A stretch of DNA of 16,821 nt from a virus (taxonomy: Duplodnaviria; Heunggongvirae; Uroviricota; Caudoviricetes): the IMG/VR virus record IMGVR_UViG_2671180758_000023; one strand, 5' to 3'. Numbering within the stretch: the first letter of the stretch is position 1; the number at the start of each line of letters is the position of its first letter. The notes under the pieces were generated by a model. The model was not told the origin of the DNA, did not search any database, and saw only the letters and a program-made list of their open reading frames with translations. The translations under genes were made by a program, and so were the position numbers. This document shows, piece after piece, positions 7,776 through 15,510 of this stretch.

Positions 7776-8348
7776 TCACACCCCCGCTAAATCCGCCCAC
7801 CAGCGGCGATTATCCGCACGCGGCATTTTTTCGGGGTGCTGCTCGTACAGGGAGCGGCGGGCCAGCTCCACGCCGGAATCAGGGTAAGCCGGTACGGATG
7901 TAACGGTAATTTCGTATAGTTCCGCCACCAGCACGGTGCGCACGCATGGATCTGTTGTGGTATCCCATACATCCTTACGGGAACGAAAGCCAAAGCTCAT
8001 GCCGGATATATCACCTCGTTTAACCAGTTCGATAACGTCGCGCCCTGTACTGGTATCCGGTGGGGTCAGTTCAAAGCGTAACCCTGTTTCGTCCTCTTCC
8101 AGTTTCAGCGTGCCGGAACGGGTGCGCCCCAGTAACATGCTGTGGTCATGCTCATACAGGCCGCGAACGTCATTACCCGCCGCAAGCCACTCAGTAAACG
8201 CCCCCCGCTGGAATTTTTCGTAAAACTCCCCCCATAGCAGTTCTGAAAGCTTATCCCAGCGAACAACGTAGCCCGTCAGCGTACCGGCTCCGCTGGTAGT
8301 GATTTCCGATGACCGGATTTCCATACTCTTCATAATTTTTTCACCCAT
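7776..8348 (-). CDS. Prohead maturation protease, HK97 family (about 180-190 aa)
   Basis: Conserved pattern GYVVRWDKLSE...GLYEHDH...LGRTRSGTL...ISGMSFGF typical of HK97 prohead protease. Start may be ATG 8348 or the downstream ATG at 8333. Confidence 0.85.
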   Translation of the reverse strand: MGEKIMKSMEIRSSEITTSGAGTLTGYVVRWDKLSELLWGEFYEKFQRGAFTEWLAAGNDVRGLYEHDHSMLLGRTRSGTLKLEEDETGLRFELTPPDTSTGRDVIELVKRGDISGMSFGFRSRKDVWDTTTDPCVRTVLVAELYEITVTSVPAYPDSGVELARRSLYEQHPEKMPRADNRRWWADLAGV

Positions 8349-8377
8349 AAAACACTAAAGGGGCTTTTAAGCCCCTT
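8345..8377 (-). terminator. Intrinsic terminator/attenuator hairpin between the major capsid and protease genes
   Basis: Dyad aaggggctt/aagcccctt (8358-8377) followed in the minus-strand direction by a GTTTTAT U-tract. Placement immediately after a capsid gene is common for stoichiometry control. Confidence 0.45.
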
Positions 8378-8387
8378 CTGTATGCTG

Positions 8388-9545
8388 TTAATCGTCGTCC
8401 TGTGGCAGTTCCAGAATCTTGATCGCGTTCGAATCCACCACGCCACCGCCTAAATATTTCTGCGTGAAAATTTTGATGAAGCCCGGCTCTGTGAGGTTGT
8501 CCGGTCTGGTGCGAACACCTGTTTCGTGATCAACAATGTAGTAACCGCGTTTGAAGTCACCCAGGGCAATAACGTTATCAGGCATAAACTCCAGATATTC
8601 GACCGGAAGGCCCAGCAACGTATCAGGATCACCCGCCTGTAAACGGTCGCGCCAGATGTAATCACCGTTCGCGTTCTTCACCTTCTGAAGTTTTGCCGCC
8701 GTCGTGGAGTTAACCACCCAGACCGCGTTTTTGCGGTATTTTTTACGTAATGCAAATTTCAGGTCGATCAGCGGGTCCGCAGATGTCCACGCCAGAGATT
8801 CGGAAGGTTTAATTACCTGCAACGTACCAAAATCACGCTCTTTGTCGTTCTTCTCTGCACGGGGTACGGATAAAAAACCTTTTGCTTTTTTGTCACCGTC
8901 GCCCACAACCAGATCGCTTTCTTCGGTTTCCGTGAAGGTGTCGCCAATCTCACCCGTCAGCCATGAAAGGATGTCCACATCGGAAAAATCCACGATTTCC
9001 TGTGTGGTGCGCGGGTACGCATAGACCGGATACAGCTTAATGCTCACCTCGTTAATCTGCGGGGTGCTGGTCTGTTCGCGTGTCTTACCCTCTTCACCGT
9101 GGTTAACGGTCGCACCGCCAGCGGAAACAAGCTGCTTAAACTCGTTGCTGCTGATTTTCTTCACGGTACAGATGCGGCGCATGGTGGATTCATCCGTCAG
9201 CATTCGCATGATTTCGGTGTTCAGTTCGGGGATAACGGTATAACCACCATCAGCGGGAACGCCTGTACTTAATGCGCGGGTTTCACCTGTCAGAATGTAG
9301 TTGCGTAGTTCTGCGGGGTCAGTGGTCTGGCTGCTTTTACCTGGCTTGCTGCGCTCTTCGTCTGCAATGGCTTCAAGGCGGGAAATGTCTTTATCGAGGG
9401 ATTCAGCTTTAGCGCGTAATTCGTCAAATTTTGCGCCCTCAGCATCGTTAAGACTGCGGTTTTCTTTTTCCGCGTTCTCCAGCATGTCGCGCATCTGATT
9501 TTTAATGGCGGTTTTCTGCTGGCGTAATTCGATTATTCTCGGCAT
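8388..9545 (-). CDS. Major capsid protein, HK97 fold (385 aa from ATG 9545; ORF track extends to a GTG at 9593)
   Basis: N-terminal coiled-coil delta/scaffold-like domain (IELRQQKTAIKNQMRDMLENAEKENRSL...) followed by a typical HK97 MCP body. AGGA 8 nt before ATG 9545. Confidence 0.9.
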   Translation of the reverse strand: MPRIIELRQQKTAIKNQMRDMLENAEKENRSLNDAEGAKFDELRAKAESLDKDISRLEAIADEERSKPGKSSQTTDPAELRNYILTGETRALSTGVPADGGYTVIPELNTEIMRMLTDESTMRRICTVKKISSNEFKQLVSAGGATVNHGEEGKTREQTSTPQINEVSIKLYPVYAYPRTTQEIVDFSDVDILSWLTGEIGDTFTETEESDLVVGDGDKKAKGFLSVPRAEKNDKERDFGTLQVIKPSESLAWTSADPLIDLKFALRKKYRKNAVWVVNSTTAAKLQKVKNANGDYIWRDRLQAGDPDTLLGLPVEYLEFMPDNVIALGDFKRGYYIVDHETGVRTRPDNLTEPGFIKIFTQKYLGGGVVDSNAIKILELPQDDD

Positions 9546-9832: not shown

Positions 9833-10105
9833 TTATCTGTCCTGGTAATTTCGCCATATTTCATCGCTTACACCATCTATACCCATTTCAGCATAAGTGC
9901 GATCTACTGCCTTTCTCAGGTCTCCGAAGTTATCCGGCGGCTCCGGTGGCTTCTGTGCCTTCCTGGAACATTCCAGCCGTCGCATCGTAACCTGATGCCG
10001 TTCCTTGTCTGTCTCCACCAGCAGCATGACTTCACCCCATCGCGCCGCCGCCCTCCGGTAAAAGCCTTTCGCCTCGAGTTCTTCCGCTATGCGGTCATGT
10101 ACCAT
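9833..10105 (-). CDS. PerC-family transcriptional activator-like protein (90 aa from ATG 10105; ORF track extends to a GTG at 10225)
   Basis: MVHDRIAEELEAKGFYRRAAARWGEV and C-terminal MGIDGV motif. GAGGGGG RBS 5 nt before ATG 10105. Last gene of the early/replication operon before the terminator. Confidence 0.6.
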   Translation of the reverse strand: MVHDRIAEELEAKGFYRRAAARWGEVMLLVETDKERHQVTMRRLECSRKAQKPPEPPDNFGDLRKAVDRTYAEMGIDGVSDEIWRNYQDR

Positions 10106-10115
10106 CGCCACCCCC

Positions 10116-10526
10116 TCAGAACGGAATACCGTCACCGTAAGGGTCATCGCCTCCCGCTGGTGGCTGATTACCCTGTGTGCCTGTGGTTTTGCGTCTGTTC
10201 CCGCCAGGACGTGCCGCACGGGCACTGATTACGCTGTCTGCAATAACCTGATAACCCTGCCGCGTTTCCCCGTTCTGTCCGGTCCACTGGCTGACCTGCA
10301 TCGTGCCGGATACGCTGGCAACGTCGCCTTTTTGATGTTTAGCCAGGAAGTCGGCCTGCTTACCAAATGCGATGACCGATAGCCATAACGTAGCCTGCCC
10401 ATCCTGCGCCTGACTACATGGCAACGATACCGCCATACGTGCCAGCGTCATTGGTGTGCCCTTGCTGGTCTGTTTTACCTGCGGGTCGTCCACCAGCCGC
10501 CCGTAAGCTGCTATCTGTGCTGTCAT
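10116..10526 (-). CDS. ssb: Single-stranded DNA-binding protein (136 aa)
   Basis: OB-fold-like N-terminal region, Gly/Gln-rich linker and C-terminal acidic tail ending DDPYGDGIPF (SSB DDDIPF-type tip). Strong RBS GGAGAGGTGG. ATGA overlap with the upstream ORF. Confidence 0.8.
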   Translation of the reverse strand: MTAQIAAYGRLVDDPQVKQTSKGTPMTLARMAVSLPCSQAQDGQATLWLSVIAFGKQADFLAKHQKGDVASVSGTMQVSQWTGQNGETRQGYQVIADSVISARAARPGGNRRKTTGTQGNQPPAGGDDPYGDGIPF

Positions 10527-12912: not shown

Positions 12913-13369
12913 GGCTTACATCCTCAGGAAATTTTCTTCTATAACGCGCCTCTGCCACATATTCCGCATAATCGGCGGCGATATTCAGTACATCAAGCCC
13001 CGTTGATTTATATTCTCTCGTGGAAAGTAAGAAAAAAGCCGCTCTAATAAGTTCTGGCATTGACGAAAGCGCATCAGCCGCATCATCAGGAACGCCGGAA
13101 AATTCCTGTTTCAGGGAATTAAAACGATCATCACGCATAACCCCCCCATTTTCACAATCAGCAATCAGGATAGCTTTGGCCTCATTCAGCGCCGTATCAG
13201 CACTAAATTGCATGACAGCCAGTGAGTGAGGAACGAAAGCACCGGCATATTCTGTTTCGCTGGTGGCGTGCTTATGTGCCCTGTCCGCGATAACAGAAAT
13301 ATCAATCAGCGCGTGCATCAGCGTTTTGATGGCTTCGGCGGCTGCGTCCGGTGTGGTTTTATTGTGCAT
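12905..13369 (-). CDS. Hypothetical protein (154 aa)
   Basis: ATG 13369 with AGGGGA RBS. Acidic, helical-looking. Overlaps neighbours by a few nt. No family recognised. Confidence 0.55.
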   Translation of the reverse strand: MHNKTTPDAAAEAIKTLMHALIDISVIADRAHKHATSETEYAGAFVPHSLAVMQFSADTALNEAKAILIADCENGGVMRDDRFNSLKQEFSGVPDDAADALSSMPELIRAAFFLLSTREYKSTGLDVLNIAADYAEYVAEARYRRKFPEDVSHA

Positions 13370-13571
13370 AAAGCATCCCCTGAATATTCGTGTTAATCAT
13401 TCCGGCACGTTTTGTGATTTCCTGTAATGATTCCCTTGTGGCGACAATTGCTTCATCTGGTAAGTGGTAATTACACACCACGCGACCTTTATCCACATTG
13501 ACCAGTAGCTGCCCTGTGAATTTCTCACGAAACTGAATGCGGTTAAGGTCAGTAAGTGACAGATTAATCAT
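13359..13571 (-). CDS. Hypothetical protein (70 aa)
   Basis: ORF in the coupled operon; overlaps the upstream gene by 8 nt. No family recognised. Confidence 0.5.
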   Translation of the reverse strand: MINLSLTDLNRIQFREKFTGQLLVNVDKGRVVCNYHLPDEAIVATRESLQEITKRAGMINTNIQGMLYAQ

Positions 13572-13767
13572 GGCGCACCTCCTGACGAATACGGGCAGCG
13601 AATACCATCACGCAGCCAGCCGGAGATTGCTGGCGTGCTTCCTGTTCGCTGGTGGCCTCAATGGTAATCACGCGCGGTTGTGCCGTGCTCAGGGCGATAA
13701 AACGCCAGATGTATTTATTCAGGTTGTGCGAGTCCCGCCCTTGCGGGTGTGTGGTATTATTTCTCAT
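13564..13767 (-). CDS. Small protein (67 aa) resembling Icd-like (host cell division inhibitor-like) proteins of P4-family elements
   Basis: GAGG RBS 5 nt before ATG 13767. Motifs YIWRF, IEATSEQEAR and FAARIRQEV recall P4-family Icd-like proteins (from memory, not searched). First gene after the divergent promoter region. Confidence 0.45.
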   Translation of the reverse strand: MRNNTTHPQGRDSHNLNKYIWRFIALSTAQPRVITIEATSEQEARQQSPAGCVMVFAARIRQEVRHD

Positions 13768-13802
13768 AGCTACCTCGATACTCTCGTTATCGTTGGTGGT
13801 TA

Positions 13803-13837
13803 GAAGCCCCGTTACTGCTCCAACAGTGCGGGGCTTC
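13803..13837 (-). ncRNA. Leader stem-loop (gaagccccg ... cggggcttc, 9-bp stem, 17-nt loop) in the 5' UTR of the early operon
   Basis: Dyad read directly. Lies between the predicted minus-strand promoter and the Icd-like start codon. Not followed by a U-run. Confidence 0.3.
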
Positions 13838-13874
13838 GTCGTTTCAATTGCTGAATTGCATGTATCAGCACTTG

Positions 13875-13929
13875 TGGTATTCACATTACATTTAGGTGAA
13901 TACCATTTCAAGTCTTTTTTGGTATTCAC
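13875..13929. promoter_or_regulatory. Operator array in the divergent switch region: three copies of TGGTATTCAC (two form a 10-11-10 palindrome), overlapping back-to-back promoters
   Basis: Copies at 13875-13884, 13896-13905 (inverted) and 13920-13929. Minus-strand promoter candidate TTGAAA (13906-13911), 17-bp spacer, TAATGT (13883-13888) overlaps copies 1 and 2. Plus-strand -10 candidate TATTAC (13935-13940) lies just after copy 3. Confidence 0.45.
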
Positions 13930-13972
13930 TTTTGTATTACACTGCATCCCGTTATTAATGGGAGGTGCAAAC

Positions 13973-14278
13973 ATGTCCAGGAGTTCTGTTAACAATAAGT
14001 CACAGCAACTGAATGCCAGATTTCCACATGAAGTAGTGAGTGGCATTGAGGCATCCCTACAGCCAGGGGAAACTAAAGCGAATTTTATAGTTACGGCTGT
14101 ACGCGGTGAGATCGCCCGGCGCCAGGCAGAAGGAAGTGGAGAAAATCCCCTGGTTTCTTCGCTCGATGCACTGGCGCAGGTGGAAAAACTCGGAATCAAA
14201 GCCGCCGAGGAGATCGGGCAGCTCGTCACTGTCGCACGTGAAGAACTCCAGCGCCGCAAGACCAAAGAACCAGAGTAA
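13973..14278 (+). CDS. Ribbon-helix-helix-like DNA-binding protein (101 aa); candidate repressor/regulator of the switch
   Basis: Strong RBS GGGAGGTG 5 nt before ATG 13973. N-terminal beta-strand-helix-helix pattern (LNARFPHEVVSGIEASL...ANFIVTAVRGEIARRQ). Divergent from the early operon. Followed by a clear intrinsic terminator. Confidence 0.6.
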   Translation: MSRSSVNNKSQQLNARFPHEVVSGIEASLQPGETKANFIVTAVRGEIARRQAEGSGENPLVSSLDALAQVEKLGIKAAEEIGQLVTVAREELQRRKTKEPE

Positions 14279-14335
14279 TCACCATCAGCGCCGTGGTGTA
14301 AGGTATTACGGCGCATTGCTATGCAGGACAACACA

Positions 14336-14509
14336 ATGACCGATAAAGAATTGACCAAAACATTATCACCGGCACGGAAAAGACGGCGCAGAAAGATAGA
14401 GCATGAATCAGAAAGATTCGCGCCATGTGCTTTTGCCCTTGAGCAATTCCTTAAAGAGTACAGGGAAAAGCGCTCATTGCAGGTATGGCAACGAACTGAA
14501 CCAGACTGA
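14336..14509 (+). CDS. Hypothetical small basic protein (57 aa)
   Basis: AGGA 8 nt before ATG 14336. Basic patch RKRRRRK. Same transcription unit as the RHH gene, ending before the terminator at 14589. Confidence 0.4.
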   Translation: MTDKELTKTLSPARKRRRRKIEHESERFAPCAFALEQFLKEYREKRSLQVWQRTEPD

Positions 14510-14588
14510 TTGCATTGCCCACCAGCCGCAAATGTGGCATTGTTGGCAATGCTCATGCGTTGGGGATAACGTGTAGCTTGTGTCGAGG

Positions 14589-14617
14589 GGCCACCGTAGC
14601 GGGTGGCCTTTGTTTTG
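14589..14617 (+). terminator. Rho-independent terminator (ggccacc-gtagcg-ggtggcc followed by TTTGTTTTG)
   Basis: Perfect 7-bp GC-rich stem, 6-nt loop and U-run, about 80 nt after the stop of the plus-strand operon. Confidence 0.7.
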
Positions 14618-14985
14618 CCCGTTATTCGGCAATTGTGGCGCTTCTCCACATGGTTGATATAATCCCACTGCTCAGATTCATTTTTTGCGCAGTAGGTTAA
14701 TTGTTCACAAAGGCGCTCCGGCAACGGGGCGCTTTTTGTTTTTATTAGTTTGTAGAAACCTGACTCAGAGATAATGCTCATATTCTGATTGCCGTCAGGG
14801 GTGTAAGTTAAATTTACTCCCTTTTTATCATCAAACATCTGCAACGCTCTGGCGTTAACAATATTGGTTTCACTCCCGCCAGTAAGGCCGGAAATAACCG
14901 GAATAATTTCGGCAAAATTTTGCAGATTCTGTTTTTCAGGACGAACGAAGCCCCGCCCTTGTTCGGGAGAATATCCAGTATTCAT
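14618..14985 (-). pseudogene. Bro-N-like antirepressor N-terminal domain, probably a gene remnant (no in-frame stop before running antisense through the plus-strand operon)
   Basis: Residues DDKKGVNLTYTPDGNQNMSIISESGFYKLIKTKSAPLPERL align to the Bro-N pattern (DEDEKGV...GG.Q...IISE.GLY.LI..S..P.A..F). Weak RBS. The frame stays open for 473 codons to 13564, but the middle section is Ser/Cys/Arg-rich antisense of a well-supported plus-strand gene. Confidence 0.3.
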
Positions 14986-15037
14986 GGTTAGATCTCTGTA
15001 TTAGTGGATGGGTGGCGGCTGTGTGCCGCCAGCCTGA

Positions 15038-15226
15038 TTAGTGAACTGCCTCGCAGCTGTCCTTCCATGCCAGAACTTCGGATAAAGACCAGCCAACGGA
15101 ACGACCGCCCAGCTTACGCCGTGATGGGAATTGTCCGGCTTTTTCCAGGCGGTACCGACATGAGCGGCTCAGGCCTGTAAGTTGCTGACATTCTTTTTCA
15201 CGTATAAAGCGATCTGTGCTTAACAC
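15038..15226 (-). CDS. alpA: AlpA-family transcriptional regulator / excisionase-like protein (about 62 aa, GTG start)
   Basis: Motif QLTGLSRSCRYRLEKAGQFPSRRKLGGRSVGWSLSEVLAWK matches the AlpA winged-helix pattern. AAGGGGG RBS 4 nt before GTG at 15226. Confidence 0.8.
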   Translation of the reverse strand: MLSTDRFIREKECQQLTGLSRSCRYRLEKAGQFPSRRKLGGRSVGWSLSEVLAWKDSCEAVH

Positions 15227-15256
15227 AATTCCCCCTTTGTTGTTTCTTAAAGAGTC

Positions 15257-15310
15257 ATTGGGTGGATTATTGGGTTGGGTTGTGTCGGATTGTGTCAGGG
15301 TGTTTGTGGA
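15257..15310. repeat. Degenerate direct repeats with about 10-bp period (ttgggtgg, tgggttgggt, tgtgtcggat, tgtgtcaggg, tgtttgtgga) immediately upstream of alpA
   Basis: Read directly. Lies in the alpA 5' region on the transcribed strand. Function unknown. Confidence 0.4.
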
Positions 15311-15510
15311 ATGGCAAACACTGGCGGCGGTCGTTTTACAGAAGCAGGGGGAATGAGAATAAAAACTCTTTTAATTCATTATGATGCAAAGGCATAAAAT
15401 TTTACTTTTACGCCTTTTTTACATATTTTTAAGAGTGATTCGCCAGTGTATAAAAAAACAGTACACCTATAAAAATCAAATGGTTATTACGATGGCTGAT
15501 TTTTAACCCG

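Follow-up and report, generated by a model that had tools for sequence, protein, structure and literature searches.

The stretch of viral DNA analysed here (IMG/VR record IMGVR_UViG_2671180758_000023, Caudoviricetes; 16,821 nt, in the following called the window) is a capsid-forming phage satellite that resembles the phage-inducible chromosomal islands (PICIs) and lies between phoQ and roxA. Its minus strand carries, just downstream of alpA, an open reading frame (ORF) of 473 codons that runs antisense to a small plus-strand operon and ends at the stop codon of a nested gene for an Icd-like protein. Why should a frame in such a position remain open? A preliminary description had reported this ORF, which is real and exactly as stated there, and had interpreted it as a chimera in which an antisense stretch joins a Bro-N-like remnant to a separate Icd-like gene. 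As an account of anatomy, origin and annotation this view stands, but the continuity of the frame is probably not meaningless. Comparison with related satellites indicates that the long frame is kept free of stop codons and is not accidental. With a probability of roughly 0.6, we consider the frame to be the PICI-like satellite's counterpart of eta/kil of phage P4, that is, a translated bridge that would protect read-through transcripts.

The evidence for maintenance of the frame comes from 80 IMG/VR loci (76 distinct, 77 listed) that were gathered with the product of the first plus-strand gene, a YlcI/YnfO-family protein, as query. In 75 of the 76 distinct loci the antisense frame is free of stops across the YlcI/YnfO gene and far beyond it, over 200-820 codons, and the remaining two antisense frames of the same loci close within 26-131 codons. 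An out-of-sample set of 13 loci was taken from one-genome-per-species contigs. The frame is open in 10 of these, over 322-696 codons (Enterobacter soli, Xenorhabdus, Photorhabdus, Pantoea, Phytobacter, Klebsiella), and the operator region of the open loci has 0 stops in this frame versus 2-6 in the others; the three exceptions are one truncated gene and two loci without upstream alpA context. The equivalent antisense frame of nine well-supported genes of the window contains 99 stops per 3161 codons, and at this rate the approximately 325 stop-free codons that lie outside real coding sequence are far above chance expectation.

An alternative explanation, and the one favoured in the preliminary description, is that of an accidental shadow ORF, in which an antirepressor pseudogene and a stop-poor antisense stretch are followed by an Icd-like gene that is in phase by chance; the long frame would then be without function and no more than a trap for annotation. 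Several observations agree with this. The third codon positions of the YlcI/YnfO gene coincide with those of the long ORF, which makes this the antisense frame most tolerant of overlap; because the third positions of both strands coincide, tests of the dN/dS type (nonsynonymous versus synonymous substitution rates) are non-discriminating here. Synonymous-codon resampling keeps the antisense frame open with P = 0.21 for the YlcI/YnfO gene and 0.85 for the second plus-strand gene, with similar values for six other variants, so that the plus-strand proteins account for most of the openness of codons 159-338, which face the two genes. In this part the window behaves like known shadow ORFs, whose third positions coincide with those of a real gene. 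The codon-usage check proposed in the preliminary description gave a score of -0.20 for the middle of the ORF, like that of the antisense of a gene (real genes +0.13 to +0.41, their antisense -0.19 to -0.38), and of +0.22 for the Icd part. The middle is rich in Ser, Cys and Arg, as had been noted (13.4% S, 5.4% C and 7.2% R in residues 130-406), it matched nothing in Pfam or NCBIfam, and annotators have chosen many different starts for the ORF. Unlike shadow ORFs, however, the frame of the window continues for some 160 codons through non-coding regulatory DNA and is kept across unrelated variants.

This can be followed in the operator region, which was compared as the 135 nt upstream of the YlcI/YnfO start in eight variants with pairwise identities of 23-53%, except for variants E and F (76%). 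All eight have 0 stops in the frame of the long ORF; elsewhere there are 2-7 in the other minus-strand frames, apart from a single variant with none in one of these frames, and 0-5 in the plus-strand frames. Dinucleotide shuffling gave P(0) values of 0.023-0.084 for the individual variants, which for seven classes multiply to about 4e-10; with shared columns held fixed the product was 5e-7. These joint probabilities are approximate, since common descent and shared promoter motifs link the variants. The hairpin-to-ATG distances (175, 166, 166, 163, 166, 187 and 199 nt) are each 1 mod 3, and in the one class that deviates, with 167 nt, the frame closes at the hairpin. An accidental shadow leaves unexplained both this spacing and the lack of stops in eight diverged non-coding variants, as well as the in-frame junctions across several independent upstream architectures and the recurrence in distant genera, and we regard it as quite unlikely. 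Judged from these comparisons, what the middle of the frame conserves is its openness and its phase, not its amino-acid sequence or codon usage. Conserved full-length homologs, which had been named as an argument against a chimera, are accordingly found for the open frame and not for the protein sequence.

The 3' end of the frame is formed by the Icd-like gene, which belongs to the P4 Kil family (NCBIfam NF033153 phage_ICD_like, 69.8 bits versus a cut-off of 25) and has its own Shine-Dalgarno (SD) sequence, GAGGT (13776-13772), 4 nt before ATG 13767. In 42 distinct loci it lies in frame within the long ORF. Another 9 distinct loci have an intact Icd and a long frame that terminates close to the Icd ATG, 5-20 nt upstream or 12 nt downstream of it; this establishes Icd as a separate gene, as had been proposed from its ribosome-binding site. 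Inside the long ORF a minus-strand promoter is predicted from two conserved hexamers, a -35 TTGAAA (13911-13906) and a -10 TAATGT (13888-13883). A pair resembling TTGAAA/TTGACN-17-TAATGT is conserved at this position in relatives; a general promoter scan of the window did not list it. The first in-frame ATG downstream of this promoter is the Icd start.

This arrangement is reminiscent of P4. According to Mageeney et al. 2023 (PMC10111431, citing Forti et al. 1999), P4 eta follows an alpA homolog, a constitutive promoter and the CI immunity RNA with its target sit inside eta, and Kil corresponds to a shortened Eta that is nested within it. Translation of full-length Eta takes place only from the upstream late promoter, and the same text states that 'Eta translation prevents termination' (PMC10111431). 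We checked the P4 sequence and found the eta-frame ORF (8168-8812) following ORF88/vis; its C-terminus (Kil) matches NF033153 with 73.1 bits. P4 Kil and the window Icd are 28% identical by BLASTP (E = 0.007). A tblastn search with the 67-aa Icd against 50,697 phage records returned a single match, which was not P4; the relationship to P4 Kil was recognised only with the family model. The two loci have in common a long ORF directly after the alpA homolog (vis in P4) on the same strand, an Icd/Kil-family gene with its own start that occupies the 3' end of this frame, a promoter (here predicted) and the immunity determinants within the long ORF, and a replication operon downstream. They differ in that P4 has the CI RNA with seqA/seqC on the same strand, whereas the window has a two-gene protein operon, operators and three plus-strand terminators on the opposite strand. 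The ORF is also longer (473 codons versus 197 in P4), and it starts 52 nt past alpA, whereas the P4 start is coupled to vis.

A P4-type RNA immunity system was considered for the window and rejected. Rfam gave nothing at gathering thresholds on the whole window, and a search of 13300-15400 relaxed to E <= 10 yielded neither C4 nor isrK nor anything CI-like, while the P4 eta-frame ORF, used as positive control, returned C4 (CI RNA) with 74.9 bits and seqA-like isrK with 60.8 bits. The place that the CI immunity RNA has in P4 is taken in the window by a protein-coding operon in antisense orientation. The Bro zone of Gram-negative PICIs, as described in the accessible parts of PMC10111431, has the same order of int, alpA, Bro-network gene(s), replication and late genes, and shares with the window shuffled Bro/Ant domains and embedded immunity functions; unlike the window, it has immunity RNAs inside Bro genes and largely unidirectional genes. 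Those parts of the paper make no mention of an antisense protein-coding repressor operon spanned by an eta-like frame, and no description of such a frame turned up in a literature search.

Another comparison is offered by the immI operon of phages P1 and P7, which has the order c4 RNA, icd, ant, with translation of one coupled to expression of another. The combination of an Icd-family small protein with an antirepressor gene is shared with the window, but there the order is reversed (ant remnant first, icd last), ant is fragmentary, and C4 RNA was not found.

In view of the above, we regard the following course of events as the most plausible. In the repressed state, the YlcI/YnfO protein would shut the leftward promoter inside the ORF; this promoter, if firing, would yield the 67-aa Icd and nothing longer. 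When a helper phage switches on AlpA-driven transcription from upstream of alpA, RNA polymerase would cross 1.2 kb of antisense sequence. Untranslated antisense RNA is a classic Rho substrate, and across most of 13950-14750 the minus-strand RNA contains more C than G. Ribosomes initiating at ATG 14985 would accompany the polymerase through the stop-free frame, and their cover would shield the transcript both from Rho-dependent termination and from pairing with plus-strand antisense RNA. Transcription and translation would thereby reach icd and the replication genes, and convergent transcription would also silence the repressor operon or interfere with it. The peptide encoded by the middle of the frame would be irrelevant. 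Beyond the frame being kept open, we infer these steps from the analogy with P4.

Besides the relatedness of the operator variants, several observations weigh against such a bridge. ATG 14985 is preceded by a weak ribosome-binding site, GAGA at a distance of about 10 nt, and the gap that separates this start from the alpA stop at 15038 on the same strand contrasts with the overlap reported for P4. A weak terminator-like site was detected on the minus strand itself (14496-14472, consensus scan). The dependence on Rho is assumed by analogy with P4 and with antisense transcripts in general. Finally, the frame is broken in L078 (at +202), in L071 (at -64) and in class F (at the hairpin), which means that openness is not indispensable.

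One could also imagine that the frame is translatable mainly because this stabilises a long antisense RNA that silences the repressor operon by interference or duplex formation, feeding of the downstream genes being secondary. The convergence of the transcription units, the unidirectional plus-strand terminators and the extent of the ORF, which covers the entire repressor operon and both promoters, would all suit such a role. By itself it leaves unexplained why the ORF regularly ends in frame with the Icd start or at most 20 nt from it, and as the main function it appears unlikely, although it is compatible with a translated bridge and does not exclude it. The features concerned are listed in Table 1.

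Table 1. Features in and around the 473-codon ORF (coordinates of the window)
Feature	Position	Strand	Remarks
Bridging (eta-like) ORF	13564..14985	-	ATG start, 473 aa; ends at stop of nested Icd-like gene
Icd-like (P4 Kil-family) gene, 67 aa	13564..13767	-	codons 407-473; own SD and ATG
Conserved structured element	13752..13845	+	antisense to icd leader, SD and ATG
Divergent promoter/operator region	13846..13972	.	codons ~339-380 of long ORF
YlcI/YnfO-family small DNA-binding protein, putative immunity repressor	13973..14278	+	antisense to codons 236-338
Second plus-strand operon gene, 62 aa	14321..14509	+	phrog_21027 1.6e-15; antisense to codons 159-222
Terminator-like hairpin of plus-strand operon	14589..14616	+	GGCCACC-N6-GGTGGCC then TTTGTTTT
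Candidate small-RNA unit	14655..14746	+	antisense to codons ~81-110
Antirepressor remnant, codons 1-81	14743..14985	-	AntA-type N-terminus and mid-Bro-N fragment
alpA	15038..15226	-	Phage_AlpA 3e-18; just upstream of long ORF
Promoter-like site upstream of alpA	15317-15289	-	consensus scan

The 5' part of the frame had been described as a Bro-N-like domain of about 120 codons. An antirepressor fragment is indeed present, but it comprises 81 codons, with Bro-N similarity at residues ~47-81, and codons 82-158 are not Bro-N but antisense to terminators and a candidate small RNA. Residues 1-48 match the N-termini of the AntA/AntB-domain proteins P0056 and P0059 (84% identity, about one third of the query), although the AntA/AntB domain itself (PF08346) gave no Pfam match in the long ORF. 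Residues ~47-81 match the middle of Bro-N proteins and are 61% identical to P0079, a 192-aa protein with an intact Bro-N domain. The Pfam Bro-N model (PF02498) was not reached (14.1 bits versus a gathering score of 25.6); the sub-threshold alignment pairs profile positions 37-85 of 96 with residues 52-91, and PHROG Ant families reach 1e-5 over residues ~50-85. Relative to intact proteins, the parts before ...RTALQM and after ...FYKLI are missing from the ORF, including the first half of Bro-N, and about 35 residues of the 96-position domain survive. An alignment to intact Bro-N proteins had been suggested for locating the truncation. The metagenomic protein P0012 (175 aa) shares residues 1-81 with the ORF and continues into an intact Bro-N C-terminus, which places the truncation exactly after residue 81. 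This break, after ...FYKLI, coincides with the right edge of the conserved plus-strand terminator module. By these alignments the ant gene of the window is truncated and fused in frame to the bridging ORF.

Whether a truncated Bro-N protein is still made was the question raised by the preliminary description, and the related idea that the long product is itself functional has to be weighed here. The ORF could encode an N-extended Icd isoform or an Eta-like 'Bro-network' regulator with the middle as a flexible linker. P4 Eta is treated as a recognised gene product and grouped with Bro-network proteins in PMC10111431, and the N-terminal 16 residues of the window ORF (MNTGYSPEQGRGFVRP) are kept even where the ant part is deleted (P0016, P0039, L057). 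Against this, the middle differs completely between immunity classes and between upstream architectures, it is rich in Ser, Cys, Arg and Leu with antisense-like codon usage, only the Bro-N residues mentioned above are left, and the ORF ends before Icd in 9 distinct loci. We consider a function of the long product very unlikely. A truncated Bro-N protein functioning as such is likewise unlikely, and the remnant most likely supplies the translation start of the bridging ORF.

Relatives show various solutions at this upstream end. In 36 of the 77 listed loci the long ORF has its first ATG 8-57 nt past alpA, with several unrelated junction types. Where an intact ant/bro gene follows alpA, the start of the bridging ORF overlaps its 3' end in three of five architectures examined (4-44 nt), by 8 nt in L032 and L019, as ATGA in L020 and by 44 nt in L043. 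L014 and L068 offer the bridging ORF no other start than a TTG, 145 nt beyond the Bro-N stop; in L030 it begins past the conserved module. In loci with a second alpA type, the start codon of the bridging ORF (MNITKSAPLPER) lies right at the terminator of the candidate small RNA, so that the candidate RNA would be antisense to that start. Two loci, on a Martelella alba scaffold (L085) and in Erwinia psidii (L086), contain YlcI/YnfO and Icd-like genes and a closed frame with 4 operator-region stops; IS3-family transposase-like ORFs occupy the place of alpA in L085, and no alpA is found upstream in L086. They represent natural cases in which the open frame is lost along with the upstream context.

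The middle had been described as exactly antisense to the plus-strand operon and its terminator, and both genes and a hairpin with T-run are found there. All three hairpin terminators within the long ORF are oriented for the plus strand. The hairpin behind the operon lacks a T-run on the minus strand and is kept in relatives, with a compensatory variant GGCGACC/GGTCGCC. Beyond it lies a candidate gene for a small RNA (sRNA) of about 75-80 nt, with an extended -10 TGATATAAT (14655-14663), a conserved core GCGCAGTAGGTTAATTGTTCACAA and a terminator (14709-14746) that scored as strong in the terminator scan, with 12 pairs and a T-run. The -10 and core are kept across different backgrounds, and the terminator variant found in relatives is compensatory. 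The candidate had no Rfam match. RNAalifold gave a poor consensus, two terminator variants being out of register, and for that reason the candidate was judged by single-sequence folding (-29.8 kcal/mol, z = -5.4) and inspection.

A second structured element, at the other side of the operon, has a -10-like sequence TGGTATTAT (13752-13760), a 13-bp hairpin (13803-13837) and a U-rich tail, with a fold of -37.6 kcal/mol (z = -7.6). Four pairs of the hairpin show compensatory changes. It pairs in 167 of 169 cells on the plus strand (21 of them G.U) versus 146 of 169 on the minus strand, which indicates that it is selected in the plus-strand RNA. The element may be a cis-antisense RNA of about 80-90 nt over the icd SD and ATG, or a plus-strand terminator that shields the repressor promoter. 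Taking both RNAs together, it can tentatively be proposed, at somewhat below even odds, that the frame is selected solely for absence of stops, that it forms a 'ribosome bridge' on which helper-induced, AlpA-driven transcription can cross the immunity module and silence it, and that the two plus-strand RNAs guard both translation starts. This would amount to a re-invention of the P4 CI-RNA switch from a protein and antisense RNA.

The protein encoded by the first gene of the plus-strand operon, which is preceded by the SD sequence GGGAGG, belongs to the YlcI/YnfO family (NF041551, 60.8 bits versus a cut-off of 30; phrog_6522, 1.9e-45). It has 128 homologs of about 101 aa across Enterobacterales. 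The second gene is annotated in a 99.7% identical locus, with a RefSeq start at 14336. Operator repeats GGTATTCAC (13876-13884), GTGAATACC (13896-13904) and again GGTATTCAC (13921-13929) overlap the predicted leftward promoter. The first ~35 residues of the YlcI/YnfO protein change together with the inverted repeats between the divergent promoters, while the C-terminal two thirds are near-constant; this co-variation evidently reflects operator specificities and suggests that the family is the satellites' specific repressor. There are at least eight immunity classes, with operator-region variants at window 13876-13929 and in L002, L020, L021, L025, L068, L069 and L070.

The N-terminus of this protein may be of the ribbon-helix-helix (RHH) type, in favour of which its co-variation with the inverted repeats can also be cited, but structural searches did not confirm the fold. 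A Pfam match to the RHH family PSK_trans_fac is weak and below cut-off (E = 0.008). In the AlphaFold2 model of the monomer (pLDDT 75, pTM 0.36) a short N-terminal segment is followed by helices at 19-28 and 35-55, and a Foldseek search with it returned nothing at E < 0.5. Phmmer/profile searches against sequences in the PDB gave a weak helix-hairpin-helix (HhH)-like match in the C-terminal half and no other. The HhH-like motif LDALAQVEKLGIKAAEEI lies in residues 45-86, and this part weakly resembles the HhH domain of Hef (1x2i, E = 0.023) and the lyase/HhH region of DNA polymerase beta. In the literature on YlcI/YnfO or on an RHH repressor in PICIs we found gene lists only, where the gene appears as an accessory 'prophage-associated protein'.

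It had been anticipated that automated annotation would call one 473-aa protein at this locus, and that exact sequence is present at NCBI (EEW0085001.1 and others, 25 contigs) under the name 'host cell division inhibitor Icd-like protein'; the 67-aa Icd form is deposited on 59 contigs. In RefSeq the protein has 161 aa at a locus of 99.7% identity and 327 aa at one of 94.5% identity, and the Bro-N remnant is left unannotated. Among near-identical loci, Icd-like entries in RefSeq/GenBank have lengths of 67, 68, 103, 136, 160, 161, 232, 254, 327, 360, 384, 473 and 474 aa. Icd-like annotations are found at L001 2993-3478 and L002 3165-4148, and the YlcI/YnfO gene or the Bro-N remnant is often unannotated. 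A translated bridge would explain this widespread inconsistency of 'Icd-like proteins' of 67 to 474 aa at one locus. If true, PICI-type satellites with a protein repressor on the opposite strand would also follow the P4 principle, in which late transcription escapes immunity-specific termination because a long ORF, in itself without meaning, is translated. It would also be a clear natural case of selection on translatability and not on the protein, which bears on how antisense and overlapping ORFs are judged, and it would offer a concrete model for the passage from repression to induction in Gram-negative PICIs. The YlcI/YnfO family is nominated as the immunity repressor, with at least eight operator specificities.

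The other genes of the satellite agree with its classification; E. coli 181.1 and 2017C-4173W12 are examples of strains with this island (99.7% identity). On the minus strand it has integrase, alpA, small genes, DUF4222, a RepA-type AAA_25 helicase, a single-stranded DNA-binding protein (SSB) and PerC, and the late genes for major capsid protein, prohead protease, portal and large terminase (TerL). The last 8 bases of the long ORF overlap the start of the next gene (13359..13571, minus strand; 70 aa, phrog_340). Genes further along likewise overlap or abut (13369/13359, 12912/12905), so that the leftward operon is tightly coupled in translation. The PerC-family regulator gene (9833-10225, minus strand; PF06069, 1.3e-44) adjoins the SSB gene; a PerC-like protein of a different E. 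coli PICI was reported to repress expression of the locus of enterocyte effacement (LEE) (PMC11773190).

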